Source of the DNA: Squalus acanthias
Taxonomy: Eukaryota
NCBI GenBank assembly: GCA_030390025.1
Contig: CM059432.1
Location: 34,350,001-34,414,000, forward strand
Direction: 5' to 3'
Length of the DNA stretch: 64,000 nucleotides
Shown here in pieces: positions 9,138 through 63,235 of this stretch. Within the stretch, counting starts at the first letter, position 1. Each line of letters begins with the position of its first letter. Under the pieces are notes generated by a model, which saw nothing but the letters and a program-made list of their open reading frames with translations, was not told the origin of the DNA and ran no database searches. Position numbers and translations under genes: made by a program.

Positions 9138-9431
9138 ACACATAATCCCCATCGAGCCTGCACCGACACATATCCCACCCTATCCCCGTAACCCCACGTA
9201 TTTAATTCCCCCTAACATATCCCTTCCTATCCTATCCCCGTAACCCCACATATTTAATCCCCCCCTAACACTAAGGGTCAATTTATCATAGCCAAATCAA
9301 CCTAACCCGCACATTTTTGGACTGTGGGAGGAAACCGGAGCACCCGGAGGAAACCCACACAGACACGGGGAGAATGTGCAAACTCCACACAGACAGTCAC
9401 CAGTGCTAACCACTATGCCACCGTGTTGCCC
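9138..9431 (-). mobile_element. tRNA-derived V-SINE (HE1-like), internally deleted
   Basis: Head ggcaacacggtggcatagtggttagcac (A-box) and the V-domain-like block ggactgtgggaggaaaccggagcacccggaggaaacccac; family name assigned from memory. Confidence 0.75.
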
Positions 9432-9505
9432 CCATCAAATCTGGGAGATTAGGCCTAGGCCGTTCAGTGGTTATGTCAGAAAGCAGTTCATCACACAAAG
9501 GGTAG

Positions 9506-10032
9506 TGGGGGGAGTAAAAAGAAATGTTGTAGTGGTAGGGGATAGTATCATTAGGGGGATAGATAGGGTTCTTTGCAGCCAAGAGCGAGAGTCCCGAAGG
9601 CTGTGTTGCCTGCCCGGTGCCAGGGTTAAGGACATCTCCTCTGGGCTGGAGAGAAACTTGGAGTGGGAGGGGGAGGATCCAGTTGTCGTGGTCCATGTTG
9701 GTACCAATGACATAGATAGGACAAGGAAAGAGGTTCTGCTGAGGGAGTTTGAGCAGCTAGGGGCCAAATTAAAAAGCAGAACCTCGAGGGTAATAATCTC
9801 TGGATTACTACCTGAGCCACGAGCAAATTTGGCTAGGGTAAATAAAATCAGGGAGTTGAATGCGTGGCTCAAAGACTGGTGTGGGAAAAATGGGTTTTGC
9901 TTCTTGGGACACTGGCACCAGTACTGGGGCAGGAGAGAGCTGTTCCGTTGGGACGGACTTCACTTGGCCAGTGCTGGGACTAGTGTCCTGGCGAATCGAA
10001 TAACTAGGGCTGTGGAGAGGGCTTTAAACTAA
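9506..10032 (+). CDS. CR1 ORF1 SGNH/GDSL esterase domain (N-terminally truncated)
   Basis: VVVGDSIIRG, LPGARVKD, VHVGTND and DGLHL blocks. Confidence 0.85.
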
Positions 10033-10070
10033 TTAGTGGGGGGGAGGTTTCAAGAGAGCAAAAAATAAAA

Positions 10071-13022: not shown

Positions 13023-13417
13023 GTCTAGGTTCGGATCGGTCATGGCCCTGTGGGTAGTGGAGCGGGCCCAGGGACTGTGTAGCCTGATTCTGCTCCTATT
13101 TCGTGTGTGCAATTCTGTTAGATGCAGGAGATGGTTCTGTGATAGATAGTAGATTGGCGGTTAGGATCAGATCAGCCATGATCTTATTGAATGGCGGAGC
13201 AGGCTCGAGGGGCCGATTGGCCTACTCCTGCTCCTATTTCTTATGTTCTTATGTTCTTATCAGGTCCAGGGGACTTGTCAGCCTTTAGTCCCATTAGTTT
13301 GCCAAGTACTTTTTCTCTAGTGATAGTGATTGTTTTAAGTTCCTCTCTCCCTTGATTATCTACTATTATTGGGATGCTTTTAGTATCTTCTACCATGAAG
13401 ACAGATACAAAATATTT

Positions 13418-13513
13418 CTGACGAAAGGTCATCGACCTGAAACGTTAACTCTGTTTCTCTCTTCACAGATGCTGCCTGACCTGCTGAGTATCTCCAGCAT
13501 TTTCTGTTTTTAT
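13418..13513 (+). mobile_element. 96-bp Penelope-like (PLE) 3' fragment beginning at a minimal hammerhead motif
   Basis: 12-bp TSD TACAAAATATTT (13406-13417 / 13514-13525); CTGACGA-A-aggtc-atc-gacct-GAAA-CG-TT; homologous to 59552-59647. Confidence 0.8.
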
Positions 13514-15200
13514 TACAAAATATTTGTTCAAAGTCTCTGCCATTTCCCTGTTTCCCATTATTAATTCCCCAGTCTCATCCTCTAAGGGACCAATGTTTAC
13601 CTTAGCTACTCTCTTCCTTTTTATATAACTGTAGAAGCTCTTACTGTCTTTTTTATATTTTTTGCTCATTTACTCTCATAATTTATCTTCACCCTCTATT
13701 ATTTTTTTAGTCATCCTTTGTTGGTTTTTTAATATTTCCCAATCCTCTGGCCTACCACTAATCTTCACAACATTGTATGCCTTTTCTTTCAATTTGATAC
13801 CATCCTTAACTTCCTTAATTAGCCATGGATGGTTCATCCTTCTCGCAGAGTCTTTCTTTCTCACTGGAATATACCTTTGCTGAGAGTTATGAAATATCTC
13901 CTTAAATGTCTGCTACTGCTTGTCTACCATCTTACCCTTTAACCTATTTTCCCAGTCCACTTTAGCCAACTCTGTCTTCATACCTTTGTAATTGCCTTTA
14001 TTTAAGTTTAAGACACTAGTTTCAGACCCAAGTTTCTCACCCTCAAATTGAATATGAAATTCTATCATGCTATGATCACTCTTCCCTAGAGGATCCTTTA
14101 CTGTGAAATCATTAATTAATCCTGCCTCATTACAAATTACCAGATCTAAAATAGCCTGCTCCCTGGTTTAACGTATTGTTAAAAGAAACCATCCCGAATC
14201 CACTCTATCAACTCGTCCTCAAAGCTACCTTTGCCAATTTGATTTGTCCAATCTATATGAAGATTAAAATCGCCCATGATTATTGCAGGACCTTTCTTAC
14301 AAGCCCCCATTATTTCTTGATTTATACTCTGTCCTACTGTGTAGCTACTGTTAGGGGGCCTATAGAGTACTCCCATCAGTGCCTTCTTTCCCCTACTATT
14401 TCTTATCTCCACCCAAACTGTTTCTATATCTTGATCTTCCGAGCCAAGATCATTTCTTACTACTGTACTGATCTCATCCTTTATTAACAGAGCTAACCCA
14501 CCTTCTTTTCCTTTCTGCCTATCCTTCCGAAATGTCAAATATCCCTGAATATTCAGTTCCCAGCTTTGGTCACCTTGCAACCACGTCTCTGTAATGGCTA
14601 TCAGATCATATCCATTTATATCTATTTGTGCCATCAATTCATCTATCTTGTTACGAATGCTGCGTGCATTCAGATAAAGAGCCTTTAATGTTATCTTTTT
14701 ACCATTTTTCCCTACTCTTACCCTATTTGCCGGTGCAGTTTTATGTTTGTGCGTTCAGTCCCTTCTTGTCAGACTCTGGTTATCATTACCCCTATCGCAA
14801 CCCTGCACTATTGCCTTGTCTTTTCTCTTTAACTTTCTAAATTTCCCCTCACCTAAACCCTTCCCCCCACTATTTAGTTTAACGCATTATCTACAGCCCT
14901 AGTTATTCAATTTGCCAGGACACTGGTCCCAGCATGGTTCAAGTGAAGCCCGTCATAACGGAACAACTCCCTCTTTCCCCAGTATTGGTGCCAGTGCCAC
15001 ATGAATCGAAACCCATTTCTCCCACACCAATCTTTGAGCCATGCATTCATCTCTCTGATCTTACTGACCCTATGCTAATTTGCTCATGGCTCAGGTAGTA
15101 ATCCAGAGATTATTACCTTTGTGGTTCTGCTTTTTAATTTAGCCCCCAGCTGCTCATACTCCCTCAGCAGAACTTCTTTCTTAGTCCTACCTATGTCGTT

Positions 15201-18732: not shown

Positions 18733-19245
18733 GGGCTAAAAATTCAGTTGGTTGCGCCTTCCCTTCGCGCCTTAAGAGGGCGCTAATGGGGCGCAATGCA
18801 GCTAGCGCCCGGGCGCAGCGATGTTTGCGCCGCTCGGGAACTTCAGTAGACATTTTGCGGCGGCGCTAAACTTTATCGCCGCGGTCCCCTGCGCCCGCGG
18901 ATTGTGACATCATACGAGAGTGCAACGCCCGTGTGGCGCCCCGGAGCAGAAATTCAGTGGCGCCCCCATCCTTACCGCCTGGCGCACCCAACGACCGGTA
19001 GAGTGGAACGCTAACAATCGCTGTGGGGCTCGGGGGGGCGCTATTTAAAGGGGGCCTCTTCCTGTCTTTCTCTGTGGTTGACATTTTTGCACCACTCGTT
19101 CTGAGAGAGAGAGAGAGAGATTCGGAGAGAGAGAGAGAGAGACTTGTGCATTGAGTCAACGCTGTGTGAGGTAGTTTTGGCTACTGAGCATAACTTCGCT
19201 GGTACTTTGGTTTCTGGCCTTCATAACTTTGCTTGCAAAGAGACT

Positions 19246-20276
19246 ATGGGGGCTGCACTGATGTGGGGCGTCGTCCTGCGCCAGCTGAATCGGAGGAGAC
19301 GGAGACGCAGAGAGAGAGTGGCAATGATGGCCAGATGGAGGAGGGCCAACAGGCGTCTGTACAGGAGAGCTTACCCTCCCAGGGTATATCGTGAACAGCT
19401 CTCCTACATTCATATGTCTGATGAGCAGTGTCTGCGAAGGCTGCGCTTCAGCAAGGAGGTGGTCACTGAGCTCTGCCACCTGCTGCAGCCAGATCTGCAG
19501 CCTCAACTGAGGTCCTGGACGTCTCTGTCGGTGGCAGTGAAGGTCACAGTGGCTCTGAACTTTTATGCTACTGGCTCATTTCAATCTGCTGTTGGGCACA
19601 TCGCCAATCTCTCCCAGTTCGCGGTGCATTGCTGCATCAGGAAGGTCACAAATGCCCTGTTTAAAAGGAGACGACAGTTCATCTCTTTCCCCATGACCCC
19701 AGACAAGCAGCAAGAACGCGCTCTGGGCTTTGCGAGGATAGCGGGCTTCCCCATGGTGCAGGGCGCCATTGACTGCACGCATGTGGCTTTGCGTGCTCCG
19801 CATGAGAATGCCGAGGATTTCCGGAACAGAAAGGGGTTCCATTCCTTGAATGTTCAGTTGGTCTGTGACCACAGACAGCTGATACTCGCTGTCAATGCCC
19901 ACTATCCTGGCAGCTGCCACGATGCTTTCATCCTGCGCCAGACTACTGTGGCAGAACTTTTCGAGGCACCGCATCAGCCAGTTGGTTGGCTTCTCGGGGA
20001 CAAGGGGTATCCACTGAGCACCTGGCTGATGACACCGCTCCGTACGCCCAACACCCCTGCTGAGCTGCGGTACAACGAGAGCCATCAAGCTACCAGGAAC
20101 ATCGTGGAGCACACAATCGGCGTGCTCAAGCAACGGTTCCGCTGTCTCGACCATTCTGGAGGAGCCCTGCAGTACTCGCCTGAGCGAGTATCCCACATCG
20201 TAGTTGTGTGCTGCATGCTGCATAACATGGCAATCCTCAGGACCCAGCCAATGCCACCAGGCCTTGGAGCACCACC

Positions 20277-20364
<88 letters not shown>

Positions 20365-20472
20365 GAAGAGGAGGAGGAGGATGATCAGCAGCAGCACCAA
20401 GGCGTGAGGGCGGCCCACAATGGTGAAACTGCAAGGGCCGTCCGTCAACGGCTGATAGCAAGCCGCTTCTAG
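19246..20472 (+). CDS. Harbinger (HARBI1-like) DDE transposase, 408 aa
   Basis: Open from ATG 19246; GAIDCTH, HDAFIL, LLGDKGY, VEHTIGVLKQRFRCL, CCMLHN; 34-Glu tract near the C-terminus. Confidence 0.93.
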
Positions 20473-20783
20473 GCCCCTGCTGTGGAAATGGCTTCTGCCA
20501 TTGAGAACAGCATGAACGAACCCAACACGCAACCCCTAAGCCGGCCAAGGCACCAATGATTCCAAACACCAAACATGTATAATTTGAGTACCAAAACTTA
20601 TTTATTTTACAAACTCTGTGTGTGTCATTTACTCATGACACACTCATACAAATAAACACAAAAAAACAGTCATTACCATAACTGGTTCTCACAACCTGGA
20701 GATCATGTGCAAAACACTCAACAAAAGTTTGACCTCGAACCTCGGCCTTTAATAAAAAAATAACCAGCATTTTGTCACACCTC

Positions 20784-22684
20784 CTACATCGAGGGTGAAC
20801 TCCTTCCCATGCGCCCTTCCCCCCTTCTTACCCTACTGCTCCTCCGCAATGGGACCTCAGTGGCTGCAGCAAGGCTGGTGGAAGGCTGCTGACTGTCAGG
20901 CCCTGACAATGCAGATGCCCTTGAGGGACGGCCTCGACCAGTTCTGGGCCTGGAGGGCCCGGCTGCAGACTGCACCAACTCTGCATGGGCGGCAGCAGTC
21001 TGTCCTACAGGCGGTGGCAACTGCAGTGGAGAAGCGACAGTGGTGGCAGCAGGAATGCTGTCATCTTGCGCGAGGACAACAACTCCCTGCTCGACCGGCA
21101 CACTGGCACTCCCACGGGGCAGCACTTCAGCATCCGGAGCAATCTGCTGGAGAACAGATTGCTGGCCTGCTGCGGCGCGGTGACAGCCCCGGGGAAATGT
21201 GTCCGAACCAGCGAGGATGGCAGCAGACAGTGCTCGCGTGGCCTCAATCTGAGTCTGCATGAGAGCAGTCTGAGATTGAATTGCAGCACTGAGCTTCAGG
21301 GTCGCATCCGCCTGCGCTGCAGCGAAGTGCTCCACACTCCTTGCCAGCGCTTCAATGCATTCGGGCACCCTACCCACTGCAGCCATGAGCTCAGTGTGCA
21401 TGGCCACCGCCTGGGTGTTCATTTGCGCGATCAGCCGCTCCTCCTCTGTGTCCAGTGCAGCAGGACTCGCTGGCCTACTCTCCCTCCGGGGAGAAGGCCC
21501 CCGAGCTTCCCTACCCCCATCGCATTGCTGCAGCCCGCTGGGTCCTGGAGCTTCACCCTCATCAGACCCTTCCCCCCTGCTCCCCTCCAGGGAAGGCGTG
21601 TCCTCAGTGTCGGCATGGGCTTCCTCGGGAGAGGGTGGCTCTGATGGTCCGGCTTCCTCTTCCTCCTTAGCTGCAGCCTCACTCCCACTGGCAGCTTCAG
21701 GGCCCGTCTCCTCAGCTGGTGAATCACCATCTGAAAGCAGGGAGGTACAAGAGTGGCTTTAGCGTGAGGACAGGGTGGCAGTAAGGGAGGAATAAGTGCA
21801 GCGAGTTAGTAAGTTGGATTGAAAGTGTCAAAGGCTGGTGTTGTGAGGGACAAGTGGAAGGACAGAGGACAAAAAGGTGATGACCTTACCATTGCTGTCC
21901 AGAACGGGGTCGGCGTCTGCAGTGGCGACGGGACCGATCACCCGGCTTGCCACAATCCTGTGGACGCGCTCCTCCAGATCGCTGAGGGGTTGCAGCTGAG
22001 GCGGCCCTCCACCCGTCCGTTGCTGCTGTCTCCTATTATGCGCCAGCTTGGCCTGCAAGAAAAAGGACGGCGTCTGAGTAAATATACAGCCATGGTCTTG
22101 CCTGATGTGCCTCCCATAGGTGAATAGCCCTTACTGTACTACAGCCATGGTCTTGCCTGATGTGCCTCCCATAGGTGAATAGCCCTTACTGTACTACAGC
22201 CATGGTCTTGCCTGATGTGCCTCCCATAGGTGAATAGCCCTTACTGTACTACAGCCATGGTCTTGCCTGATGTGCCTCCCATAGGTGAATAGCCCTTACT
22301 GTATGCAAAGTGTGGAATGTGTGTGTGTGCTTCATGAAAGGGCCATAGGTGTTGGATGAGTGCTGTTAATTGTGGTTTTAAGACCCTCTGGCCATAGAGT
22401 GAGGCTGAGATGGAGGAATGGAGAGGTATTGCAAAAAAGCCACTCACCCTGACGACCCGAGTGAGGTCGTTGAACTTTTTCCGGCATTGTATATGGGTCC
22501 TGGGCACCATGCTCCTGGAGGAGACGTGCTGAGCCACCTCCCTCCACACCCTTCTGTAGTCGCGCGGCAAAGGCCTCCTGCCACTCTCAGGGTACAGTGT
22601 TGATCCTTGGCGCTCCACCGCGCCAACCAGAGCATCCAAGGCCCGCTCGCTGAAGCGCTGAGCTCGCTCTCTCGCCCTCTCCAT
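20784..22684 (-). CDS. Harbinger Myb/SANT-like protein, 448 aa, exons 22684-22448, 22052-21890, 21730-20784
   Basis: RFSERALDALV..WREVA..QCRKKFNDL; canonical GT-AG junctions (phase 0 and phase 1) give one continuous 1347-nt frame. Confidence 0.88.
22085..22303. repeat. 55-bp tandem repeat x4 inside the Myb gene intron 1
   Basis: tacagccatggtcttgcctgatgtgcctcccataggtgaatagcccttactgtac at 22085, 22140, 22195, 22250. Confidence 0.95.
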
Positions 22685-23054
22685 CCTTGGCTGGAAAATT
22701 GAAGGTCAGGTCTGTCCAGGCCGAGATTCAAGGCTGCAATGAGCAGGGTGTGGCTGGGGAGCAAGATCGCCCCCCCCCCTTTAAGAACTGGCCGGCGCCA
22801 GTGTGTCTGTGTTCCCTCGCTAACTGGCAGCACCTGCGCTGCGCTCGCGCTCTGAGTTAGCGCCTCACTCCTCGGCCTTTGCGCCTTAAGACAGGTGTGC
22901 AGCGCCTGATTTAGCGCTCCAGTCACCTCCCGGGGCGTTAAAAGTGAAGTTTCCAGTCAGTGGCGATAATTAGCGCCAGGTGCTAATTTTTGCGCCCGGC
23001 CGATAATTGCGCCCCAAATGGGGCGATACTGAATTTTTAGCCCTATGACTCTAT

Positions 23055-27740: not shown

Positions 27741-28563
27741 GGGCTGGATTTTGCAAGCCGAGACGAGTTGGGGGCGGGACTGCTGCCTTCCGGGTTCTAG
27801 TCCCGCCCCCAGCGACGTCTGATGAACAGACACTATTTTCCCTTGATTGGTGTTGTTAAGCCCGCCCTGCAGGCTTGCCGGCCAATTAAGGGAAAGCCGG
27901 TGTCAGATGACGTCAGTGCATGACGCTTCATCTGCCGGTTTTCTTAAAGGGACAGGCCCCATAAATTTTTGACAGATGAATTGTCAGTGTTTGACAGCAT
28001 TGAGGTGCTGTCAAACACTGACAATCACTGTCCAAAGGTGAGCCCTTGTACCCAGGCTCATCAATGGCTCTCTCCTTAGGAAAAAACAGATGGCAGCTGC
28101 ATGTGAGATTGCAGAAGCCATCTGTCAATTCTCCCGATCAGATGAGGCTTCACAGAAACATCAAATCTTGTCACCTGCAAATATATATAAACAGAATAAA
28201 AATATTTCTCACTACATTCTCTCACCTTACTTACCTGTGCACAATTGCACCCATCACACTACCTCTGCAGCTGTCATTTGCACACTTACACTGCAGCAGA
28301 CCCACAGCTCGCCTTGCTGACCCTGGCAGGGTTTCCCGCCGTTGGGAAGCCCGCATCAGCAGGCTGAAAATGGGGAAAAGCCTCTTAACTGCCTGTTAAC
28401 AGGCAGTTAATTGTCTCTAATCCCCTTCCCGTCGCGAGGAGATGGGTCCCTGCGTGAGTCGGGGACCCGCCTCCCGAGAAGATGGTTCGGAAGCAGGTTG
28501 GGACCCGCTCCCAATTTTTCCCATTTTCCCAGCAGTCCCGCCTCCAAACCCACCTCCCAGCCC
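27741..28563 (-). mobile_element. Non-autonomous Harbinger element related to H1
   Basis: GGGCTGGATTTT ... CCAGCCC ends; TSD TAA/AAA; right part is the reverse complement of the H1 left subterminal sequence (gtttggaggcggg...caacctgc). Confidence 0.8.
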
Positions 28564-33770: not shown

Positions 33771-34265
33771 AGGCTCAGCAGTAAGGCTCTCAACTCTAGT
33801 TCAGAGCATTGTGGGTTCAAGTCCAACTCCAGACACTTGAGCCCATAATCCAGGGTCAATACAGTACTGAGGGAGTGCTGCACTGTTGGAGGTGCTGTCT
33901 TTTGGACAAGATGTTAAACTGAGGCCCTGTCTGCTCTCCATGGCACTCTTTCAATTAAGAGCAGGTGAGTTCTCCATATTATGCATAACAACCACTAGAA
34001 CCCCATCAAAGGCATTAGTGTGAAAAACAAAGACGCTCCCAAATATTTGTGCAGTTAAATTAAGAGTCCTAACCAATATTTATCCCTCAACCAACATCAT
34101 TAAAAAAACAGATTATCTGGCCATTATCTCATTGCCATTTCTGGGAGCATGCTGTGCGCAAATCTGCAGTGATTCCTACATTGCACCAGTGACTACACGT
34201 CATTGGCTATGAAGCATTTTGGGATGTCCTGAGGTTGTGAAAGGCTCTACATAAACATAAGAAAA
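33771..34265 (+). mobile_element. tRNA-derived SINE with Deu-like core and L2-like tail
   Basis: ggttcaagtcc B-box, cagtactgagggagtgctgcactgt core, tail gaggttgtgaaaggctctacataaa; related copies near 330-570, 42485-42850, 51720-51995 and 53690-53800. Confidence 0.65.
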
Positions 34266-34290
34266 AGTTGTGTTCGCCAGCAAAGTTGCC

Positions 34291-37200
34291 GGTGTCTCCG
34301 GGCCCAGTGTCCCCGGGCTCAGTGTCCTCAACTCAGTGTCCCCGGGCTCAGTGTCCCCGGGCCCGGTGTCCCCGGGCTCGGTGTCCCCGGGCTCGGTGTC
34401 TCCGGGCCCAGTGTCCCCGGGCTCAGTGTCCTCAACTCAGTGTCCCCGGGCTCAGTGTCCCCGGGCCCGGTGTCCCCGGGCTCGGTGTCCCCGGGCTCGG
34501 TGTCTCCGGGCCCAGTGTCCCCGGGCTCAGTGTCCTCAACTCAGTGTCCCCGGGCTCAGTGTCCCCGGGCCCGGTGTCCCCGGGCTCGGTGTCCCCGGGC
34601 TCGGTGTCCCCTTGCACAGTGTCCCCGGGCTCAGTGTCCTCAACTCAGTGTCCCCGGGCTCGGTGTCCCCGGGCTCGGTGTCCCCGGGCCCGGTGTCCCC
34701 GGGCTAGGTGTCCCCGGGCTCAGTGTCCTCAACTCTGTCCCCAGGCTCGGTGTCCCCGGGCTCGGTGTCCCCGGGCCCGGTGTCCCCGGGCTCAGTGTCC
34801 CCGGGCTCGGTGTCCCCGGGCCCAGTGTCCCCGGGCTCAGTGTCCTCAACTCAGTGTCACCGGGCCCGGTGTCCCCGGGCTCGGTGTCCCCGGGCTCGGT
34901 GTCTCCGGGCCCAGTGTCCCCGGGCTCAGTGTCCTCAACTCAGTGTCCCCGGGCTCAGTGTCCCCGGGCCCGGTGTCCCCGGGCCCGGTGTCCCCGGGCT
35001 CGGTGTCCCCGGGCTCGGTGTCCCCGGGCTCAGTGTCCCCTTGCACAGTGTCCCCGGGCTCAGTGTCCTCAACTCAGTGTCCCTGGGCTCGGTGTCCCCG
35101 GGCTCGGTGTCTCCGGGCCCAGTGTCCCCGGGCTCAGTGTCCTCAACTCAGTGTCCCCGGGCTCAGTGTCCCCGGGCCCGGTGTCCCCGGGCCCGGTGTC
35201 CCCGGGCTCGGTGTCCCCGGGCTCGGTGTCCCCGGGCTCGGTGTCCCCTTGCACAGTGTCCCCGGGCTCAGTGTCCTCAACTCAGTGTCCCCGGGCTCGG
35301 TATCCCCGGGCTCGGTGTCCCCGGGCCCGGTGTCCCCGGGCTAGGTGTCCCCGGGCTCAGTGTCCTCAACTCTGTCCCCAGGCTCGGTGTCCCCGGGCTC
35401 GGTGTCCCCGGGCCCGGTGTCCCCGGGCTCAGTGTCCCCGGGCTCGGTGTCCCCGGGCCCAGTGTCCCCGGGCTCAGTGTCCTCAACTCAGTGTCCCCGG
35501 GCCCGGTGTCCCCGGGCTCGGTGTCCCCGGGCTCAGTGTCCTCAACTCAGTGTCCCCGGGCTCGGTGTCCCCGGGCCCGGTGTCCCCGGGCCCGGTGTCC
35601 CCGGGCTCGGTGTCCCCGGGCTCGGTGTCCCCGGGCTCAGTGTCCCCTTGCACAGTGTCCCCGGGCTCAGTGTCCTCAACTCAGTGTCCCTGGGCTCGGT
35701 GTCCCCGGGCTCGGTGTCCCCGGGCTCGGTGTCCCCGGGCTCGGTGTCCCCTTGCACAGTGTCCCCGGGCTCAGTGTCCTCAACTCAGTGTCCCCGGGCT
35801 CGGTGTCCCCGGGCTCGGTGTCCCCGGGCCCGGTGTCCCCGGGCTAGGTGTCCCCGGTCTCAGTGTCCTCAACTCTGTCCCCAGGCTCGGTGTCCCCGGG
35901 CTCGGTGTCCCCGGGCCCGGTGTCCCCGGGCTCAGTGTCCCCGGGCTCGGTGTCCCCGGGCCCAGTGTCCCCGGGCTCAGTGTCCTCAACTCAGTGTCCC
36001 CGGGCCCGGTGTCCCCGGGCTCGGTGTCCCCGGGCTCGGTGTCTCCGGGCCCAGTGTCCCCGGGCTCAGTGTCCTCAACTCAGTGTCCCCGGGCTCAGTG
36101 TCCCCGGGCCCGGTGTCCCCGGGCCCGGTGTCCCCGGGCTCGGTGTCCCCGGGCTCGGTGTCCCCGGGCTCAGTGTCCCCTTGCACAGTGTCCCCGGGCT
36201 CAGTGTCCTCAACTCAGTGTCCCTGGGCTCGGTGTCCCCGGGCTCGGTGTCCCCGGGCCCGGTGTCCCCGGGCTAGGTGTCCCCGAGCTCAGTGTCCTCA
36301 ACTCTGTCCCCAGGCTCGGTGTCCCCGGGCTCGGTGTCCCCGGGCCCGGTGTCCCCGGGCTCAGTGTCCCCGGGCTCGGTGTCCCCGGGCCCAGTGTCCC
36401 CGGGCTCAGTGTCCTCAACTCAGTGTCCCCGGGCCCGGTGTCCCCGGGCTCGGTGTCCCTGGGCTCGGTGTCTCCGGGCCCAGTGTCCCCGGGCTCAGTG
36501 TCCTCAACTCAGTGTCCCCGGGCTCAGTGTCCCCGGGCCCGGTGTCCCCGGGCCCGGTGTCCCCGGGCTCGGTGTCCCCGGGCTCGGTGTCCCCGGGCTC
36601 AGTGTCCCCTTGCACAGTGTCCCCGGGCTCAGTGTCCTCAACTCAGTGTCCCTGGGCTCGGTGTCCCCGGGCTCGGTGTCCCCGGGCCCGGTGTCCCCGG
36701 GCTAGGTGTCCCCGGGCTCAGTGTCCCCGGGCTCGGTGTCCCCGGGCCCAGTGTCCCCGGGCTCAGTGTCCTCAACTCAGTGTCCCCGGGCTCGGTGTCC
36801 CCGGGCTCGGTGTCCCCGGGCTCGGTGTCTCCGGGCCCAGTGTCCCCGGGCTCAGTGTCCTCAACTCAGTGTCCCCAGGCTCGGTGTCCCCGGGCTCGGT
36901 GTCCCCGGGCCCGGTGTCCCCGGGCTCAGTGTCCCCGGGCTCGGTGTCCCCGGGCCCAGTGTCCCCGGGCTCAGTGTCCTCAACTCAGTGTCCCCGGGCC
37001 CGGTGTCCCCGGGCTCGGTGTCCCCGGGCTCGGTGTCTCCGGGCCCAGTGTCCCCGGGCTCAGTGTCCTCAACTCAGTGTCCCCGGGCTCAGTGTCCCCG
37101 GGCCCGGTGTCCCCGGGCCCGGTGTCCCCGGGCTCGGTGACCCCGGGCTCGGTGTCCCCGGGCTCAGTGTCCCCTTGCACAGTGTCCCCGGGCTCAGTGT

Positions 37201-39761
37201 CCTCAACTCAGTGTCCCTGGGCTCGGTGTCCCCGGGCTCGGTGTCCCCGGGCTCGGTGTCCCCGGGCTCGGTGTCCCCTTGCACAGTGTCCCCGGGCTCA
37301 GTGTCCTCAACTCAGTGTCCCCGGGCTCGGTGTCCCCGGGCTCGGTGTCCCCGGGCCCGGTGTCCCCGGGCTAGGTGTCCCCGGGCTCAGTGTCCTCAAC
37401 TCTGTCCCCAGGCTCGGTGTCCCCGGGCTCGGTGTCCCCGGGCCCGGTGTCCCCGGGCTCAGTGTCCCCGGGCTCGGTGTCCCCGGGCCCAGTGTCCCCG
37501 GGCTCAGTGTACTCAACTCAGTGTCCCCGGGCCCGGTGTCCCCGGGCTCGGTGTCCCCGGGCTCGGTGTCTCCGGGCCCAGTGTCCCCGGGCTCAGTGTC
37601 CTCAACTCAGTGTTCCCGGGCTCGGTGTCCCCGGGCCCGGTGTCCCCGGGCCCGGTGTCCCCGGGCTCGGTGTCCCCGGGCTCGGTGTCCCCGGGCTCAG
37701 TGTCCCCTTGCACAGTGTCCCCGGGCTCAGTGTCCTCAACTCAGTGTCCCCGGGCTCGGTGTCCCCGGGCTCGGTGTCCCCGGGCCCGGTGTCCCCGGGC
37801 TAGGTGTCCCCGGGCTCAGTGTCCTCAACTCTGTCCCCAGGCTCGGTGTCCCCGGGCTCGGTGTCCCCGGGCCCGGTGTCCCCGGGCTCAGTGTCCCCGG
37901 GCTCGGTGTCCCCGGGCCCAGTGTCCCCGGGCTCAGTGTCCTCAACTCAGTGTCCCCGGGCCCGGTGTCCCCGGGCTCGGTGTCCCTGGGCTCGGTGTCT
38001 CCGGGCCCAGTGTCCCCGGGCTCAGTGTCCTCAACTCAGTGTCCCCGGGCTCAGTGTCCCCGGGCCCGGTGTCCCCGGGCCCGGTGTCCCCGGGCTCGGT
38101 GTCCCCGGGCTCGGTGTCCCCGGGCTCAGTGTCCCCTTGCACAGTGTCCCCGGGCTCAGTGTCCTCAACTCAGTGTCCCTGGGCTCGGTGTCCCCGGGCT
38201 CGGTGTCCCCGGGCCCGGTGTCCCCGGGCTAGGTGTCCCCGGGCTCAGTGTCCCCGGGCTCGGTGTCCCCGGGCCCAGTGTCCCCGGGCTCAGTGTCCTC
38301 AACTCAGTGTCCCCGGGCCCGGTGTCCCCGGGCTCGGTGTCCCCGGGCTCGGTGTCTCCGGGCCCAGTGTCCCCGGGCTCAGTGTCCTCAACTCAGTGTC
38401 CCCGGGCTCAGTGTCCCCGGGCCCGGTGTCCCCGGGCCCGGTGTCCCCGGGCTCGGTGTCCCCGGGCTCGGTGTCCCCGGGCTCAGTGTCCCCTTGCACA
38501 GTGTCCCCGGGCTCAGTGTCCTCAACTCAGTGTCCCTGGGCTCGGTGTCCCCGGGCTCGGTGTCCCCGGGCCCGGTGTCCCCGGGCTAGGTGTCCCCGGG
38601 CTCAGTGTCCTCAACTCTGTCCCCAGGCTCGGTGTCCCCGGGCTCGGTGTCCCCGGGCCCGGTGTCCCCGGGCTCAGTGTCCCCGGGCTCGGTGTCCCCG
38701 GGCCCAGTGTCCCCGGGCTCAGTGTCCTCAACTCAGTGTCCCCGGGCCCGGTGTCCCCGGGCTCGGTGTCCCTGGGCTCGGTGTCTCCGGGCCCAGTGTC
38801 CCCGGGCTCAGTGTCCTCAACTCAGTGTCCCCGGGCTCAGTGTCCCCGGGCCCGGTGTCCCCGGGCCCGGTGTCCCCGGGCTCGGTGTCCCCGGGCTCGG
38901 TGTCCCCGGGCTCAGTGTCCCCTTGCACAGTGTCCCCCGGCTCAGTGTCCTCAACTCAGTGTCCCTGGGCTCGGTGTCCCCGGGCTCGGTGTCCCCGGGC
39001 CCTGTGTCCCCGGGCTAGGTGTCCCCGGGCTCGGTGTCCCCGGGCTCGGTGTCCCCGGGCCCAGTGTCCCCGGGCTCAGTGTCCTCAACTCAGTGTCCCC
39101 GGGCCCGGTGTCCCCGGGCTCGGTGTCCCCGGGCTCGGTGTCTCCGGGCCCAGTGTCCCCGGGCTCAGTGTCCTCAACTCAGTGTCCCCGGGCTCAGTGT
39201 CCCCGGGCCCGGTGTCCCCGGGCCCGGTGTCCCCGGGCTCGGTGTCCCCGGGCTCGGTGTCCCCGGGCTCAGTGTCCCCTTGCACAGTGTCCCCGGGCTC
39301 AGTGTCCTCAACTCAGTGTCCCTGGGCTCGGTGTCCCCGGGCTCGGTGTCCCCGGTCCCGGTGTCCCCGGGCTAGGTGTCCCCGGGCTCAGTGTCCTCAA
39401 CTCTGTCCCCAGGCTCGGTGTCCCCGGGCTCGGTGTCCCCGGGCCCGGTGTCCCCGGGCCCGGTGTCCCCGGGCTCGGTGTCCCCGGGCTCGGTGTCCCC
39501 GGGCCCAGTGTCCCCGGGCTCAGTGTCCTCAACTCAGTGTCCCCGGGCTCAGTGTCCCCGGGCCCAGTGTCCCCGGGCTCAGTGTCCTCAACTCAGTGTC
39601 CCCGGGCTCGGTGTCCCCGGGCCCAGTGTTCCCGGGCCCGGTGTCCCCGGGCTCGGTGTCCCCGGGCCCAGTGTCCCCGGGCTCAGTGTCCTCAACTCAG
39701 TGTCCCCGGGCTCAGTGTCCTCAACTCAGTGTCCCCGGGCCCGGTGTCCCCAGGCTCAGTT
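34291..39761. repeat. GC-rich 15-bp minisatellite (GTGTCCCCGGGCYCR) with higher-order repeats
   Basis: Read directly; variant units gtgtcctcaactca, gtgtccccttgcaca, gtgtctccgggccca and ...ggctag recur with 429-bp periodicity. Confidence 0.98.
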
Positions 39762-39872
39762 TCCCCAACCTAGTGGCCCTTATGTTCCAGAAGGAGTAAA
39801 ATAAGCACGCAGATTTCCTATCCCTGAATACTGTGCAGAGAATGATACTGGAAATTGGGCATGCGTGGGACT

Positions 39873-43527: not shown

Positions 43528-44965
43528 TGAGTACAAAATCCAGGAAGTTATACTAATCCTATATAAAACACTAGTTCAGCCCCAGCTGGAGTATTGTGTC
43601 CAATTATGGGCACCGCACTTTAGGAAGGATATGAAGGCTTTGGAGAGGGTACAGAAGAGATTTACAAGAATGGTTCTAGGGATGAGGAATTACAGTTACA
43701 TGGATAGATTGGAGAAGCTGAGGTTGTTCTCCTCAGAGCAGAGAAGGTTAAGAGGAGATTTGATAGAGGTGTTTAAAATCATGAAGGGTTTAAATAGAGT
43801 AAATAAAGAGAAAGGGGGAAGAATTCGGTTGCTTTGCGCCTCCCGTTAGCGCCCTAAGAGGGCTCGCGAAATTGACCAGACATTTTGCAGCGGCGCTAAA
43901 CACTACCGCCACGATCTCCTGCGCCTGCAGATTGTGACGTCAGTCGAGCGTGCAACGCCTCGGTAGCGCCCCGGACTGGATATTGAGTGGCGTCCCCTGC
44001 CTTACCGCCTGCCGCTAGCAATGACAGGTTGAGGGGACCGTTTTGCAGTCGGCAAGGGACTGGGGGAGTGCTATTTAAAGGCGACCGCTTCCTGCCTTTT
44101 TTTGTTGGCGACATTTTTGCACCACGCATTCTGAGAGAGAGAGACCTTTGGAGAGATTCAACGCTGTGTGAAGGAGTTTTGGGTACTGAGCAGCACTTTG
44201 CAGGTTCATTTTGATTTGACCTTCCTTGCATCGATTTAGAAGAGACTATGGGGGCTGCACTCTGAGCTCTTTCCCTGGGCCTTTCCATTGTTCTTTCCAG
44301 CAGAATTGATGTACAGATCTCTCCAGGCCAAGATTCAAGGCTGCAATGAGCAGGGTGTGGATGGAGAGCAAGATCGACCCTCCCCTTTAAGAACTGGCCG
44401 GTGCCAGTGTGTCTGTGTTCCATTGCTGACTGACATCACATGAGCTTCGCCAGCGCTCTGAGGTAGCGCCTCGCTCCTCGGCGTTAGCGCCTTAAGAGAG
44501 GTGTGTAGCGCCTGATTTAGCACTCCAATCACCTCCAGGGGCGATAGAAGCCAAGTTTGCAGTCGAGGTGAGAATTAGCTAAACTTTGCGCCCGGCCGAT
44601 AATTGCGCCCCAAACGGGGCGATACCAAATTTCTCCCCCAAACTCTTTCCACTGGCTGAAGGGTCGTTAACCGGAGAGCACAGATTTAAGGTGATTGGCA
44701 AAAGAACCAGAGGCGACATGAGGAAAAAAATTTTATGCAACGAGTGGATAGGATTTGGAATGCACTGCCTGATAGGGTGGTGGAAACAGATTCAATAGTA
44801 GCTTTCAAAAGGGAATTGGATGAATACTTGGAAGGAGAAAAAATTGCAGGGACAATGGGAAAGTGTCGGCCAGTGGGACTAACTGGATTGCTCTTCAAAA
44901 GAGCCAGTGCAGACTCGATGAGCTGAATGGCCTCCTTCTGTGCCGTACTATTCTATGATTCTATA
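43528..44965 (+). mobile_element. CR1 3' fragment split by a Harbinger derivative
   Basis: ALERVQKRFTRM...; rejoins as gagAAActctttcc; (TTCTATGA)n tail. Confidence 0.85.
43814..44639 (+). mobile_element. Non-autonomous internal-deletion derivative of the H2 family (826 bp)
   Basis: TIRs GGGGGAAGAATTCGGT / ACCAAATTTCTCCCCC; TSD AAA; collinear with both ends of H2. Confidence 0.92.
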
Positions 44966-56665: not shown

Positions 56666-58955
56666 CCTATCACAGCGCAAAGCTGAAATGAGAGGCACCA
56701 CAAAATCATCCAAAGCCAATTAATAAATTTATCAATAATCAGTGAACACATATTTACAACAACAATATTAGCTATTCACCCTTGTGCAATCCCTTAGTGC
56801 CCCTCGTTACTGTGCCTTTGCCTACTCTAGTGCTCCTACAAAGTGTTGGCCCAGTGGCTGCAGCACGGCTGGTGGAAGGTTGCTGAGTGTCCATGCAGGA
56901 GACTTCAGATGGCCTTGCAGGACGCCCTCGACCAGCTCTGGGCCTGGAAGGCCCGGCTGTAGACTGCACCATCTCAGCATGGGCGGCAGCAGTCTGGGCT
57001 GGCTGGATGACCGGCAGAGACAAGGGCAATGGCGGAGCAGCAGCGGTGGGAGCAGGAATGCTGTCATCCTGAGAGAGGACAGCAGCTTCCTGCTCCACTG
57101 ACCCACGGCCACTCCCCTGGGGCAGCACCTCAGCATCACTATCAATCTACTGGAACACAGATTGCTGGCCTGCTGTGACATCCCCGGTGAACTGTGGTGA
57201 ACCCAACGATGATGGCAGCAGTCAGAGCTTGTGTGGCATCAAGCTGAGACTGCATGAGAGCAGTCTGAGATTGGATGCCACGAACCATAGACTGCATTAC
57301 AGCACTAAGACGTTGCGTGGCTTCCACCTGTGCTGCAATGGAAGCTGCGACATCGCCCCTGACACGCGTCATGAGGTCTGGATCCGCACGGTCTCTCTGG
57401 GAGTCCACCATCCTCTGTACAGTGGAAATGATGGGCTCCATGGTGTGCGCAAAGCTCTGTGCAATGTTGGAGGTGAACTCCTCCACGCTCCTTTCCATTG
57501 CCGAGAGGCTCTCAGGCACGCTTACCATTGCATCTATCATCTCGGAGTGTATGGCCATCACCCCTCTTGTGAACACCTCTGCATCGAGGTCCTCATCTGA
57601 GTCCTGTGCAGCAGAACTCACGCGCGAACTCGCCCTCCGGGGAGCTGACTCCCGAGCTACCCTTTCCCCCTGGCCTTGCTGCAGCCCACTCATCCCTGGT
57701 GCATCACCCAGTGCAGACCCCTCTAAAGATCGCATAGTGCCAGTATCTGAGGTGGTGCCTGCGGGTGAGAGATGCAGTGACGCAGTGCTTTGCTGCTCCT
57801 CCACACTCTCAGTGGGAGGCTGAGGGACAGGCTGGTCAGCTGGTTGCTGATTCTCTGAAATCATAAAGGCACAAGACTCGCGTTAAGGTGAGGGAAGGGA
57901 GGCAGGAAGGGAGCAAGGAATGCAGACAGTATCAGGAGCTGGAAATTGGGAAAAGCTTGTGCTGTAAGGGCGAAGTGGGATGAGAGAAGGAGAGGGGACT
58001 TACGTACCGTTGTTGCCCCCAAGAGGGTCAACGTCGCCGACGGCCACGCCGCTCACCACCTGCTGCCGAATGAGTCTCAGCACTCACTCCTCCAGGTCTG
58101 AGAGCTGCTGGAGCTGCGCATCACCCCCGCCTGTTCTCTACTACTCCCTCCTATCGTGGGCCATCTTGGCCTGCAAGAGAAACGAATGTATGTGAGTCAG
58201 AGTCCAGCTATGTGTTTGGGAGATATGCCTGCCATAGTTGAATAGCTGTGATTGTAGCCAAGGCGTGAGATGTGGATGTGAGTTTGAGTAGGTGCAGGTG
58301 TTTTGTGGGTGAGTGGTGAGGGTGTGGTGGTTTGTGCAGTGTGTACAGACTGAGGTTCAGGTGCTGGTATGTAGGACCTGTTGAAGCCGAGTGAGGTCGT
58401 TGAATTTCCTCCTGCACTGTGTCAGGCTGCGTACGACCACACTACTGGCCGAGACCTCCTGGGCCACTTCCCTCCACATTGCCCTGAATACCTGGGGTAA
58501 TGGCCTCCTTCCAGTGTCCGGGAAGAGCACGGCCCTCCTTCGCTCCACTCCCACGACCAATGCCTCCAATGCCCCGTCCATGAAACGACAAGCTCTCTCC
58601 CTGGGAGTGGGATCAGCCATCACGATCAGGGGATTGAGTTCCTTGCAGGTCGCCTTCAAAGCCAGCATTGCTGAAAATGAGGACCTGCACAATGATACAA
58701 CCTCCCCTTTAAGAGCTGGAAGGAGCCAGTGTGAAGGATCATTCCCGATTGCATAGCACCTGAAATTCATTATCGCTCTGCTGGTAGCACCCCTGTAGCC
58801 CCCTGTTTAGGTCATTACTGCTTGATTTAGTGCTCCAGCTCTTTCCAGGAGTGCTAAAACACAATTTAGGGAAACCTCAGACTCATTAGCGCCTGGCGCT
58901 AATTTTTCACGATTTCAAAATTTAGCGCCCCAATGGGGCGACACCGAATTTCTCC

Positions 58956-59647
58956 CGATAGCAAAATACTGCGGATGCTGGAAATCCGAAATAACAACAG
59001 AAAACGCTGGAAAAACTCAGCAGGCCAGGCAGCATCCGTGGAGAGAGAAAGAGAGTTGACGTTTCAGGTCGATGACCTTTCATCAGAACTGGGAAGAGCC
59101 GGAAATCAAATAGATTTAAGGCCAGGGTAAAGCTGGGAAAAGGGGGAGGGGATAAAGGAACAAAGGAGGAGATGAAGAGACATAGTGACATTAAGAGATA
59201 TGCAAGGCTAGAGGTGGTGTTAATGTGACAGATTAAGGCTGAATGAAGTGTGAAATCCACTGGCAGAATGAAGGACAGCTGCCAGCTTCTAGGAGGAAAA
59301 AAAAGGTGGGGGGGGACAAATAAAAGGGTGGATAAAATAAAATATAAATGTGATTGGAGCTGAGGTTATGATCTAGTGGATTTCACACTTCATTCAGCCT
59401 TAATCTGTCACATTAACACCACCTCTAGCCTTGCATATCTCTTAATGTCTCTTAATGTCTCTTCATCTCCTCCTTTGTTCCTTTATCCCCTCCCCCTTTT
59501 CCCAGCTTTACCCTGGCCTTAAATCTATTTGATTTCCGGCTCTTCCCAGTTCTGATGAAAGGTCATCGACCTGAAACGTCAACTCTCTTTCTCTCTCCAC
59601 GGATGCTGCCTGGCCTGCTGAGTTTTTCCAGCGTTTTCTGTTGTTAT
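58956..59647. mobile_element. Penelope-like fold-back insertion with two hammerhead motifs
   Basis: Inverted arms 58991-59261 / 59375-59647; 13-bp TSD ACCGAATTTCTCC (58943-58955 / 59648-59660); 35-nt extension at the left end. Confidence 0.85.
59548..59584 (+). ncRNA. Minimal type-I hammerhead ribozyme motif (mirror copy on minus strand ~59054-59090)
   Basis: agtt-CTGATGA-A-aggtc-atc-gacct-GAAA-cg-TC-aact: stem I agtt/aact, stem II aggtc/gacct, ACGT palindrome replacing stem III. Confidence 0.75.
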
Positions 59648-60931
59648 ACCGAATTTCTCCTACTTGTGTCTGTCTTCATGGAAGAAGACGCAAAAAACAT
59701 TCCGGAAATTGTGGAGAACCAAGGGACTAGTGAGAATGAGGACCTGAAAGAAATTAGCATGAGTAAGGAAATAGTACTGGAGAAATTAATGGGACTGAAA
59801 GCAGATAAACCCCCCGGACCTGATGGCCTACATCCTAGGGTTTTAAATGAGGTGACTGTAGAGATAGTGGATGCATTGGTTGTCATTTTCCAAAATTCCA
59901 TAGATTCTGGAACGGTTCCCACGGATTGAAAGGTAGCAAATGTAACCCCACTATTGAAGAAAGGAGGGAGAGAGAAAATGGAGAACTACAGACCAGTTAG
60001 CCTGACATCAGTAGTAGGGAAAATGCTAGAATCTATTATTAAGGACGTGGTAACAGGGCACTTGGAAAGTAATAATAGGATTGGGCAGAGTCAACACAGA
60101 TTTATGAAAGGGAAATTGTGTTTGACTAATCTGTTAGAGTAATTTGAGGTTGTAACTAGCAGAATAGATAAGGGGGAGCCAGTGGATGTGGTGTATTTCT
60201 ATTTTCAGATGGCATTCAATAAGGTGCCACACAAGAGGTTATTAAAAAAATTAGGGCTCATGGTATTGGGGGTTATATACTAGCATGGATTAAGGATTGG
60301 TTAACGGACAGAAAACAGAGAATAGGAATAAATGGGTCATTTTCGGGTTGGCAGGCTGTAACTAGTGGGGTACCGCAAGGATCAGTGCTTGGGCCTCAGC
60401 TATTCACAATCTACATCAATGATTTGGATGAGGGGACCAAATGTAATATATCCAAGTTTGCTGAAGATACAAAGCTAGGTGGGAATATAAGTTGTGAGGA
60501 GGATGCAAAGAGGCTGCAAGGGGATATAGACAGGTTAAGCGAGTGGGCAAGAACATGGCACATGGAATATAATGTGGAGAAATGTGAAATTATCCACTTT
60601 GGTAGGAAAAATAGAAAAGCAGAGTATTTTTTAAATAGTGAGAGATTGGGAAATGTTGGTGTTCAGAGGGACCTGGGTGTCCTTGTACATGAATCGCTGA
60701 AAGTTAATATGCAGGTACAGCAAGCAATTAGGAAAGCAAATGGTATGTTGGCCTTTATTACAAAAGGATTTGAGTATAAGAGTAAAGACATCTTACTGCA
60801 ATTATATAGGGCCCTGGTGAGACCACACCTGGAGTATTGTGTACAGTTTTGGTCTCCTCACCTAAGGAAGGATATACTTGCCATAGAGGGAGTGCAACGA
60901 AGGTTCACCAGACTGATTCCTGGGTAGGGGG

Positions 60932-62584
60932 TGGAAGGGGTTTGCGTGGCTCTGTGCTTAGCCTGGGTGCTAGTGCGGGGTTAGGCCTTGTTGCCTGTTC
61001 TGGTCTCCAGCCAGCCTGGTAACACTAGACACCTGTGAGTGGTTCGACCCACTCGCCCTTACGGTTCTGACACTGGACTTAGGTGCGAGAGCAATAATGC
61101 AGAGAAAAACTCAGGTAGACCCGGTTGAATAGTGCGAAATGGAAAATCTTTATTGCATATTATTCAAGATTACGAAATACATGTCATAAGCACAGATTAA
61201 TGACAGTACAAACTTACATACATTTATGCAACTAGGTTTAGGGAAACGAGGAGCACACGACACATCGTAAAAGGGGACACACATTATAATTATCCTTAAA
61301 ACATAAACCCTCCCCTATCAATACCTGTCCTAATCTAGATTTGTAGGACCGAGACTCATGCTCACCACTCGTGATAACTCGAGAATTCCGAAACTCTGCT
61401 CGGATGTTTTCACCGCAGCACCTGACTATCCACGTGTTGATCAGGGGTCTCTGTACCCCACTTGTTTACTCGCTTCTGCTCCGGCTAGCAGGCTGGACCG
61501 TCTGCTGTCATGAAGATCTGTGTTGACCTCGGACTCCCGATACAGTTCGAAGACGAGTCTTACTGTGCTCAACACCAGTTGTCGGTAGAACTCGAAGAAT
61601 AGTCTTCTCGGGCCAGTTCGTGCAGTATCCTGTAGAATTCAAAAATGGTCCTTATATTTTGAGGCGCGGTTGGGGTTTACTGACCGCGGCGGCACGTGTA
61701 GTCGTCTTCTTCTCTTCTCATCTCATCTCATATCATCTCATCTCATCTCGGGCCTTCAGATCCGACACCGTTTACCGACTTCTCGGGATGGTGCGCCCGC
61801 TTACTGACCTACACAGTCCAGTTCTCCACAGATCTTCGCGGCAAGCCACGAGGTTGACTCCCGGAAAATCAGCGGATCAGAGAATGAGAGTCCAGAGCTC
61901 CGGTCGGTGGTAAAGAATAAGAGCACGATGAACAGCCAGAGGATAAGAGAAAGATGGACGTTTGGACACTACAGTTTATAGTACTGTAATTCCTTATCTC
62001 CCGCCCAATCTTTAATGTTCATCTTTTGTCATGTTTTGGCGCTCAAACTTCTTGTATGGGGTGGTACTTGTCGTTAATGGGTTACGGTGACACTTGTAAC
62101 TGTCTGAGTACCCGTTAATATTTCTCCCATTGTGGAACCGGCTAGTAGTCTCCCTGGAGGGGTTTTGGGGGCTTCCAAATGCTTGCTGTGAGTACCCGCG
62201 AACGGCTCTCTCATCGTAGAGCCGTGGGGAATTTGCATATCAATGTCTTTGGATGGGTCCTTGATCGCCCAGTACAATAGCCCTCGTTTGTACCTGGAAA
62301 ACCGATTCCAGTATTTATGTTTAAAATGCAAACCCATCGCGTCTTGTCATTATCTCAAATGTGCTGAGTCCTGTCCGATCTTGCTGAAATGTTTATTGAA
62401 AACGCCATCTTGTCTGCCTACTGAAAGTCTAGAACCTTCTGCCACGAGGCGTGGCGGCCATTTTACAGGCTGTTTGTGTCCGTTTTGAAACCTGACAGCA
62501 TTCTGCTGAAATAAAGCTGTTTGTACGAAACTTTATGTCTCCTTCTCATTATTATAAAATCGCGATAATTTTGCGAATTCTACA
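60932..62584 (-). mobile_element. Large solo LTR-like insertion (1653 bp)
   Basis: TG...CA termini, 4-bp TSD GGGG, minus-strand AATAAA near 61149-61154, no recognisable ORF; left boundary ambiguous inside a G-run. Confidence 0.65.
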
Positions 62585-62877
62585 GGGGATTGTCCTGAGG
62601 AGAGATTGAGTAGACTGGGCCTGTATTCTCTAGAGTTTAGAGGAATGAGAGGTGATCTCATTGAAACATACACAATTCTTACAGGGCTTGACAGGGTAGA
62701 TGCAGGGAGGATGTTTCCCCTGGCTGGGGAGTCTAGAACCAGGGGTCACAGTCTCAGAATAAGATGTCAGCCATTTAGAACTGAGATGAGGAAACATTTC
62801 TTCACTCAGAGGGTGGTGAATCTTTGGAATTTTCTACCCCATAGGCTGTGGATGCTCAGTCGTTGAGTATATTCAAG

Positions 62878-63065
62878 ATGCGGAGATGCCGGTGTTGGAC
62901 TGGGGTGGACAAAAATGAGAAGTCGCACAACACCAGGTTATAGTCCAACAGTTTTATTTGAAATCACAAGCTTTCGGAGCTGTTGCTCCTTCGTCGGGTG
63001 AAGTCGACGAAGGAGCAACAGCTCCGAAAGCTTGTGATTTCAAATAAAACTGTTGGACTATAACC
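62878..63065. mobile_element. 188-bp Penelope-like hairpin insertion (second family)
   Basis: 13-bp TSD GAGTATATTCAAG; perfect 61-bp arms 62936-62996 / 63005-63065; minus-strand tcac-CCGACGA-A-ggagc-aaca-gctcc-GAAA-gc-TT-gtga. Confidence 0.82.
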
Positions 63066-63235
63066 GAGTATATTCAAGGCAGAGATCGATAGATTTTTGG
63101 ATATTAAGGGATATGGGGATAGTGCAGGAAAGTGAAGTTGAGGTAGAAGATCAGCCATGATCTTATTGAATGGCGGAGCAGGCTCGAAGGGCTAAATGGC
63201 CTAATCTTGCTCCTATTTTTTATGTTCTTATGTCT

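Follow-up and report, generated by a model that had tools for sequence, protein, structure and literature searches.

Results

A fold-back insertion with unequal arms

The window, by which we mean the whole stretch of 64,000 nucleotides from Squalus acanthias analysed here, contains at 58956–59647 a hairpin-type fold-back insertion of 692 bases, surrounded by a nest of CR1-type LINEs and Harbinger-like transposons. The insertion and its borders consist of the following features, in window coordinates (TSD, target-site duplication; pLTR, pseudo-LTR).

58943–58955, plus strand: left TSD copy, the end stretch of a Harbinger-like element (similar ends at 44605–44637 and 22969–23036; Myb/SANT ORF at 58360–58806)
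58956–58959, no strand assigned: CGAT, 4 nt, either untemplated or partly the last base of the Harbinger-like end (family matches end at 58960/58958)
58960–58990, minus strand: tail, in the left arm only, between two family 3′ ends (arm alignment; loose ends at 58960, 58958 and 58988)
58991–59261, minus strand: long (left) arm, portion common to the right arm, with the pLTR sense on minus (arm alignment)
59054–59090, minus strand: minimal type I hammerhead motif, predicted cut after C59058 (descriptor scan)
59262–59374, minus strand: spacer, 113 nt, the upstream continuation of the long arm, with 59374–59366 reading Arg-Ser-stop (family depth, shared loose end, translation)
59375, no strand assigned: head-to-head junction with 1 nt of microhomology (alignment and family data)
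59375–59647, plus strand: short (right) arm, tail-less, with a decamer-duplication variant near 59445–59460 (arm alignment)
59548–59584, plus strand: minimal type I hammerhead motif, predicted cut after C59580 (descriptor scan, folding)
59648–59660, plus strand: right TSD copy, followed directly by a CR1-type LINE ORF2 fragment from 59661 (sequence comparison)

The initial annotation had described near-perfect inverted arms of about 271 bp, a 113-bp spacer and a 13-bp TSD, and all three were borne out. The shared part of the left arm (271 nt) matches the reverse complement of the right arm (273 nt) at 270 of 271 aligned bases, the differences being one mismatch and one 2-nt gap that form a single cluster at 59183–59186 in the arm alignment. 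The TSD, ACCGAATTTCTCC, is exact at 13 of 13 bases, with a chance probability of ~7e-6 when 21 × 21 offsets are allowed. Beyond this earlier account, the left side carries a one-sided tail, and the spacer is element DNA rather than a neutral loop: on the minus strand, the left side of the unit runs for 419 nt from the spacer through the shared arm into 31–35 nt (58956/58960–58990) by which it outreaches the right arm. The right arm is sense on the plus strand and the left arm on the minus strand, so that the two copies stand head to head with both 3′ ends at the TSDs. The centre, where they join, contains no self-priming palindrome.

Both arms end where other copies of the family end

We compared positions 58700–59400 with four of 21 sequencing runs, namely X1, X2 and X15, which derive from one organism in three studies, and X21, from another organism. 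Because X1, X2 and X15 contain only 0.56, 0.49 and 0.27 of the words of the stretch, their organism may be a relative. Matching contigs numbered 18,306 in X1, 31,491 in X2 and 2,330 in X15, while X21 gave 12 partial reads, too few to use. Summed depth in X1, which is not a copy number, was 2–6 million from the tail to the ribozyme, 0.3–1.9 million upstream and below 0.06 million on the flank.

Among the rows listed (18 of 1005), family 3′ ends fall at 58960 (192, 295 and 38 contigs in X1, X2 and X15), at 58958 (77 contigs in X1) and at 58988 (96, 121 and 11 contigs in X1, X2 and X15), and the flanks past these ends are long, mixed and A/T-rich (agreement 0.36–0.47). The family thus has two 3′ ends, 28–30 nt apart, which match the ends of the two arms: the left end of the insertion coincides with the outer one, and the right arm, whose last base corresponds to 58991, stops no more than 3 nt from the inner one. 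A short copy elsewhere in the window (13418–13513) stops at the equivalent of 58990. Since the reference diverges at 58959, the outer family end may sit a few bases further out. Upstream of these ends, UUUCCAGC occurs twice on the minus strand, 29 nt apart (59013–59006 and 58984–58977), each time 17–18 nt before one 3′ end, making it a candidate signal for placing the start sites.

At their other end, many family copies start at 59089 or 59085, the 5′ border of the hammerhead, and not at its cut site (59058), with depth about threefold lower past that border; reverse transcription seems to halt soon after it has passed the ribozyme. A second subfamily departs from this sequence at 59092. The 15 joint rows listed, of 17, include four strand switches, three of them inside the element near the ribozyme.

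The family data also bear on the difference between the arms. Other copies also have the right arm's variant at 59183: in X1, X2 and X15 it was present in 2, 11 and 2 contigs, respectively, and at 14, 15 and 2 loose ends. These copies do not come from this locus, since the runs have depth 0 at 59396–59400. Position 17 is C in both arms, and U in 93–96% of family depth. Within the four runs, which possibly come from a relative, no piece among those listed spans the locus and no empty site is listed. That the locus was not seen there is what one would expect if the hairpin were an assembly artefact made by a fold-back chimeric long read. We find this hardly credible, because a TSD, unequal biological end-points, an allelic difference between the arms and unrelated flanks would be unexpected for a read that turned back on itself.

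The spacer probably contains the end of the element's ORF

Behind 59375, 36 contigs of X2 and one of X15 share a continuation (median 13 letters, agreement 0.9) that translates as SGLNIEFNNF into the Arg-Ser-stop of the spacer. The consensus is 30 letters long and its twelve open codons prove nothing alone; read at the sequence level, the Arg-Ser-stop is probably the end of the element's ORF. The SGLNIEFNNF/RS-stop consensus may resemble the C-terminus of a PLE (Penelope-like element) nuclease. No printed GLN motif of such nucleases was found in the literature searched, and protein searches for the element's ORF returned no RT-bearing match, only five short or repetitive ones. No RT or GIY-YIG ORF was present among the 83 window ORFs scanned.

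We also considered a 41-codon frame that opens at an AUG in the ribozyme core (58961–59083, minus strand) as a possible ORF start. The five matches just mentioned are to this frame (E 6e-5 to 5e-4), four of them to proteins of 63–93 amino acids and one repetitive, and there is none among longer proteins; we read the matches as chance gene calls on other copies, which do not demonstrate an ORF start. The AUG itself is not fixed in the family, in which U7 is C in 48–60% of depth.

Each arm carries a minimal hammerhead motif

As the initial annotation had proposed, there is one minimal hammerhead in each arm, matched by our descriptor at 59552–59580 on the plus strand and 59086–59058 on the minus strand. 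The motif comprises a 4-bp stem I (AGUU/AACU), the core CUGAUGA, a 5-bp stem II with a 3-nt loop, and GAA-ACGU-C; an extra A lies between A9 and stem II. This copy has GUC at the cleavage triplet, the family mostly GUU. A strict version of the descriptor matched nothing in the window and was relaxed to permit the extra base, after which it matched three sites, the two arm motifs and a truncated one at 13418, whereas the same relaxed descriptor found no site with the required stems in 100 shuffled windows. Rfam gave no match of any kind at gathering score within the window and, at E ≤ 10 over 58900–59720, six weak matches, none a hammerhead. Neither the ribozyme pattern nor that of the putative ORF end was matched at any locus in the viral and metagenome contigs scanned.

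The motif combines the CUGANGA and GAAA-UH core with palindromic positions 15.2–16.2, a short helix I and an extra base at 9/10.1. It shares the palindrome, the 4–5-bp helix I, the unpaired base between 9 and 10.1 and the missing helix III with metazoan PLE minimal hammerheads, which also occur as pairs 100–700 bp apart on opposite strands (PMC4209133). It differs from them in the pair closing stem II, which is A–U here and a highly conserved G10.1–C11.1 there, although outside the descriptor used in that study, and in its 5-bp helix II with a 3-nt loop, compared with 7–8 bp in Schistosoma (PMC4209133).

Folding predictions speak against activity at this locus. The earlier account held that transcription from either strand would yield one sense ribozyme together with its antisense copy in a long double-stranded hairpin. 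That geometry holds, but in both read-through directions the antisense copy precedes the sense ribozyme, and the predicted fold (−563 kcal/mol) leaves no base of the ribozyme unpaired; −77.7 kcal/mol is predicted for the duplex of the 41-mer alone. Read-through RNA would yield at most a silencing-type hairpin. A cis-dimer of the two ribozymes was rejected as well, since their location on opposite strands prevents such a dimer from forming inside one RNA. In RNA of 59540–59600 alone, the core UGAUG is predicted to pair with CGUCA at a probability of 0.75–0.94, and stem I to form at only 0.1–0.5. Absence of self-cleavage had earlier been offered as part of a refutation, which is too strong: with the core predicted to pair with its own cleavage site, and with published PLE minimal hammerheads showing no cleavage as a monomer and weak cleavage as a dimer (PMC4209133), or requiring the element's protein, as in the anole (PMC11167929), a negative assay would be compatible with PLE origin.

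These results bear on a functional reading, in which divergent transcription from the centre yields two identical hammerhead RNAs that cleave as a trans dimer, or in which the unit is a selected source of small RNA. In its favour, both cores are intact; the whole ribozyme is nonetheless paired in read-through RNA, the monomer is predicted to misfold, and the locus is surrounded by the remains of other transposons. For a partial active-dimer fold the score was −12.3 kcal/mol, compared with −23.9 kcal/mol for the best dimer fold, a crude comparison in which the full active dimer could not be scored. Overall, we consider such a regulatory unit highly improbable. The folding models, and the fact that both arms run across the cut site, suggest instead that the ribozymes are probably passengers, inherited as parts of the parent pLTR and unlikely to have a role here. 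Three of four folds of the 3′ region did not clearly surpass those of shuffled sequences (z −0.7 to −1.4); the fourth (z −2.4) includes part of the other arm, and a modelled stem between the tail and sequence upstream of it is no more than a lead.

The insertion very probably belongs to a described pattern of Penelope-like elements

Several structural features of EN+ PLEs occur together here: a hammerhead-bearing pLTR, an inverted, 5′-truncated head-to-head copy, a tail of 30–40 nt at one end, and a short TSD of variable length. On this basis the insertion is very probably a PLE. Closely similar units are Pen2/Pen2a of Adineta vaga and Penelope of D. virilis, with head-to-head inverted 5′-truncated copies, a 30–40-bp tail at one end, a short TSD and pLTRs of ~200–400 bp (PMC3846280, PMC2377424, PMC8557442). 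In the rotifer PLE the inverted pLTRs are mostly head to head, with a 31-bp tail on one of them and TSDs of 8–10 bp (PMC3846280); Drosophila virilis Penelope has inverted terminal repeats (PMC2377424), and a general inverted-pLTR scheme is given in PMC8557442. Compared with those units, only the last ORF codons remain here, the TSD is 13 bp as opposed to 8–10 in the rotifer, and the inverted junction lacks a palindrome.

A second comparison is with Poseidon of Anolis carolinensis (PAc), which likewise has two 3′ ends bounding a tail downstream of the hammerhead, copies that cross the cut site, and A/T-rich flanks across the family (PMC11167929). The 3′ ends lie ~70 and 100 nt from the cut site here, whereas in PAc the start sites are at +111–118 and the cut at +26, and the start region, U-rich with the repeated UUUCCAGC here, is AC-rich in PAc (PMC11167929).

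Two other classes were rejected. A MITE or foldback DNA transposon does not fit, given ends that differ by 31–35 nt and a one-armed copy with its own TSD at 13418–13513. Non-LTR retrozymes resemble the insertion in being non-coding and PLE-derived, with a type I hammerhead and a similar unit size (bioRxiv 10.64898/2026.07.22.740005), but they consist of units repeated directly in tandem, each with its own ribozyme, and the two units here are inverted. Of the earlier proposal of a recent non-coding PLE product, the non-coding PLE with inverted pLTR ends and minimal hammerheads is upheld, its link to an RT/GIY-YIG ORF being indirect; that the insertion is recent is plausible from the identity of the arms (270/271) and the TSD (13/13), although the arms of a palindrome can be homogenised. 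The locus is ordinary transposon debris, a member of an already described PLE pattern. Neither this PLE family nor a two-template origin of PLE inversions was named in the titles and abstract openings of the openly available papers searched.

Two further insertions in the window allow a comparison within the same sequence. The short family copy is a 96-nt, one-armed, tail-less sequence, ~90% identical, that starts exactly at the ribozyme core and lies inside a CR1 ORF2 (13406–13525 with its 12-bp TSD). The other insertion is a fold-back of a second PLE-like family inside a CR1 3′ region (62878–63065; 62865–63078 with its 13-bp TSDs), in which the arms measure 61 nt and the spacer 8 nt; its left arm has a tail of 58 nt, and its junction lies at a hammerhead-like core in which the U4 position is changed. 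Two fold-backs in 64 kb suggest a routine product. The TSDs of the three insertions measure 13 bp at the main locus, 12 bp at 13406/13514 and 13 bp at 62865/63066, and are 54%, 92% and 69% A/T, respectively.

Three of the seven CR1 copies that span the KYFVSVF motif of ORF2 are broken within ~12 bp of it, one by the PLE fragment (13406–13525), one by an 823-bp Harbinger-like insert (27741–28563) and one at the 59661 junction, where the upstream CR1 half is missing; the site is possibly a shared insertion hotspot. A nearly uninterrupted CR1-type ORF2 of 1004 codons occupies 10008–13022 on the plus strand, with an esterase-like ORF1 just upstream (9292–10029). At 19105–22705 there is a Harbinger-like element with an open 455-codon DDE_Tnp_4 frame on the plus strand and a Myb/SANT frame on the minus strand, and at 34200–39800 a GC-rich (~70%) satellite of short units with long open frames. 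Downstream of the fold-back, ~1.66 kb of unrelated sequence (~60925–62585), by eye possibly a solo LTR, splits the CR1.

A proposed origin of the unit by priming at both ends of one cut

Taken together, the structure is probably a dead, 5′-truncated EN+ PLE insertion produced by reverse transcription from both ends of one cut. The TSD implies that the nicks were staggered, with one 3′ end exposed per strand, and the enzyme that nicked the two strands 13 nt apart would have been the GIY-YIG nuclease. The 3′ end of the top strand would then have primed a cDNA at the outer start site, tail included, which ran for ~415 nt as far as the probable ORF stop upstream, the extent seen in the sequence. 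The 3′ end of the bottom strand would have primed a second cDNA, of 273 nt, at the inner start site. Top-strand priming predicts an antisense copy on the left and bottom-strand priming a sense copy on the right, as observed. The two cDNAs meet head to head over 1 nt of microhomology, and repair would have joined them there and filled in the gaps. Both cross the hammerhead cut site, which indicates that both templates were uncut.

This mechanism has a counterpart in biochemical work on the anole PLE protein, which cleaves and extends each of the two strands, has a predicted dimeric form, and starts at two internal sites bounding the tail, on uncut RNA and in the absence of ribozyme cleavage (PMC11167929); the text of that paper does not tie two-strand extension to inverted repeats. 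Against it, the TSD is only 54% A/T and the ends do not lie at ATT, unlike in the anole assay. Weighing these points, we hold the two-primer mechanism with somewhat better than even confidence.

A single priming event is the most serious alternative, in which one cDNA or antisense RNA folds back or self-primes and a nuclease trims the second end at the tail boundary. Both elements of this scheme have been put forward for PLEs, self-priming on an antisense template in PMC3846280 and nuclease-mediated resolution that gives the tail in PMC8557442, and the minority allele C17 on both arms fits one template as well as two sister pLTRs. However, the pairing at the centre is only 1 nt and lacks a palindrome, the short arm stops no more than 3 nt from a family 3′ end that is also a boundary of the simple direct copy at 13418–13513, and the variant that distinguishes the arms is seen elsewhere in the family. 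We therefore regard a single priming event as unlikely. More improbable still is that two separate insertions, or later ectopic gene conversion, made or rewrote the hairpin. The family is very abundant, with tens of thousands of matching contigs in X1 and X2 (18,306 and 31,491), and PLEs tend to insert beside existing copies (PMC6765202), yet a single exact TSD bounds the whole unit, the centre has no second TSD, and a rare allele is common to both arms.

Within the preferred reading of two priming events, the unit may also record two templates. A dimeric PLE enzyme would prime two different uncut RNAs, or two different pLTRs of one tandem RNA, from two nicks, one per start site, and the tail could pair with the target overhang and so select the inner site. 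We propose this tentatively and think it somewhat doubtful as a whole. The right-arm variant in other copies hints at two templates, but it is a lead and not proof, because the change is of the slippage type and could have arisen more than once, or could reflect later gene conversion, and the ancestral form is not evident from the tables. As for pairing with the target, in register 7 of 10 bases agree between the bottom-strand overhang and the tail (P ~0.006), a single post hoc case in which the last two bases are mismatched, and the copy at 13418 has no overhang–tail match by eye.

Discussion

Hairpins of this kind are not to be read as functional ribozyme pairs, MITEs or microRNA precursors. 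The value of this locus lies in the mechanism it records: in a single copy, both start sites are found at the two ends of one TSD-bounded event, and both were used on uncut RNA. The origin of the inverted repeats and tails of PLEs has been called undefined (PMC8557442). Thousands of such insertions in genomes like this one would make that origin testable by computation alone.
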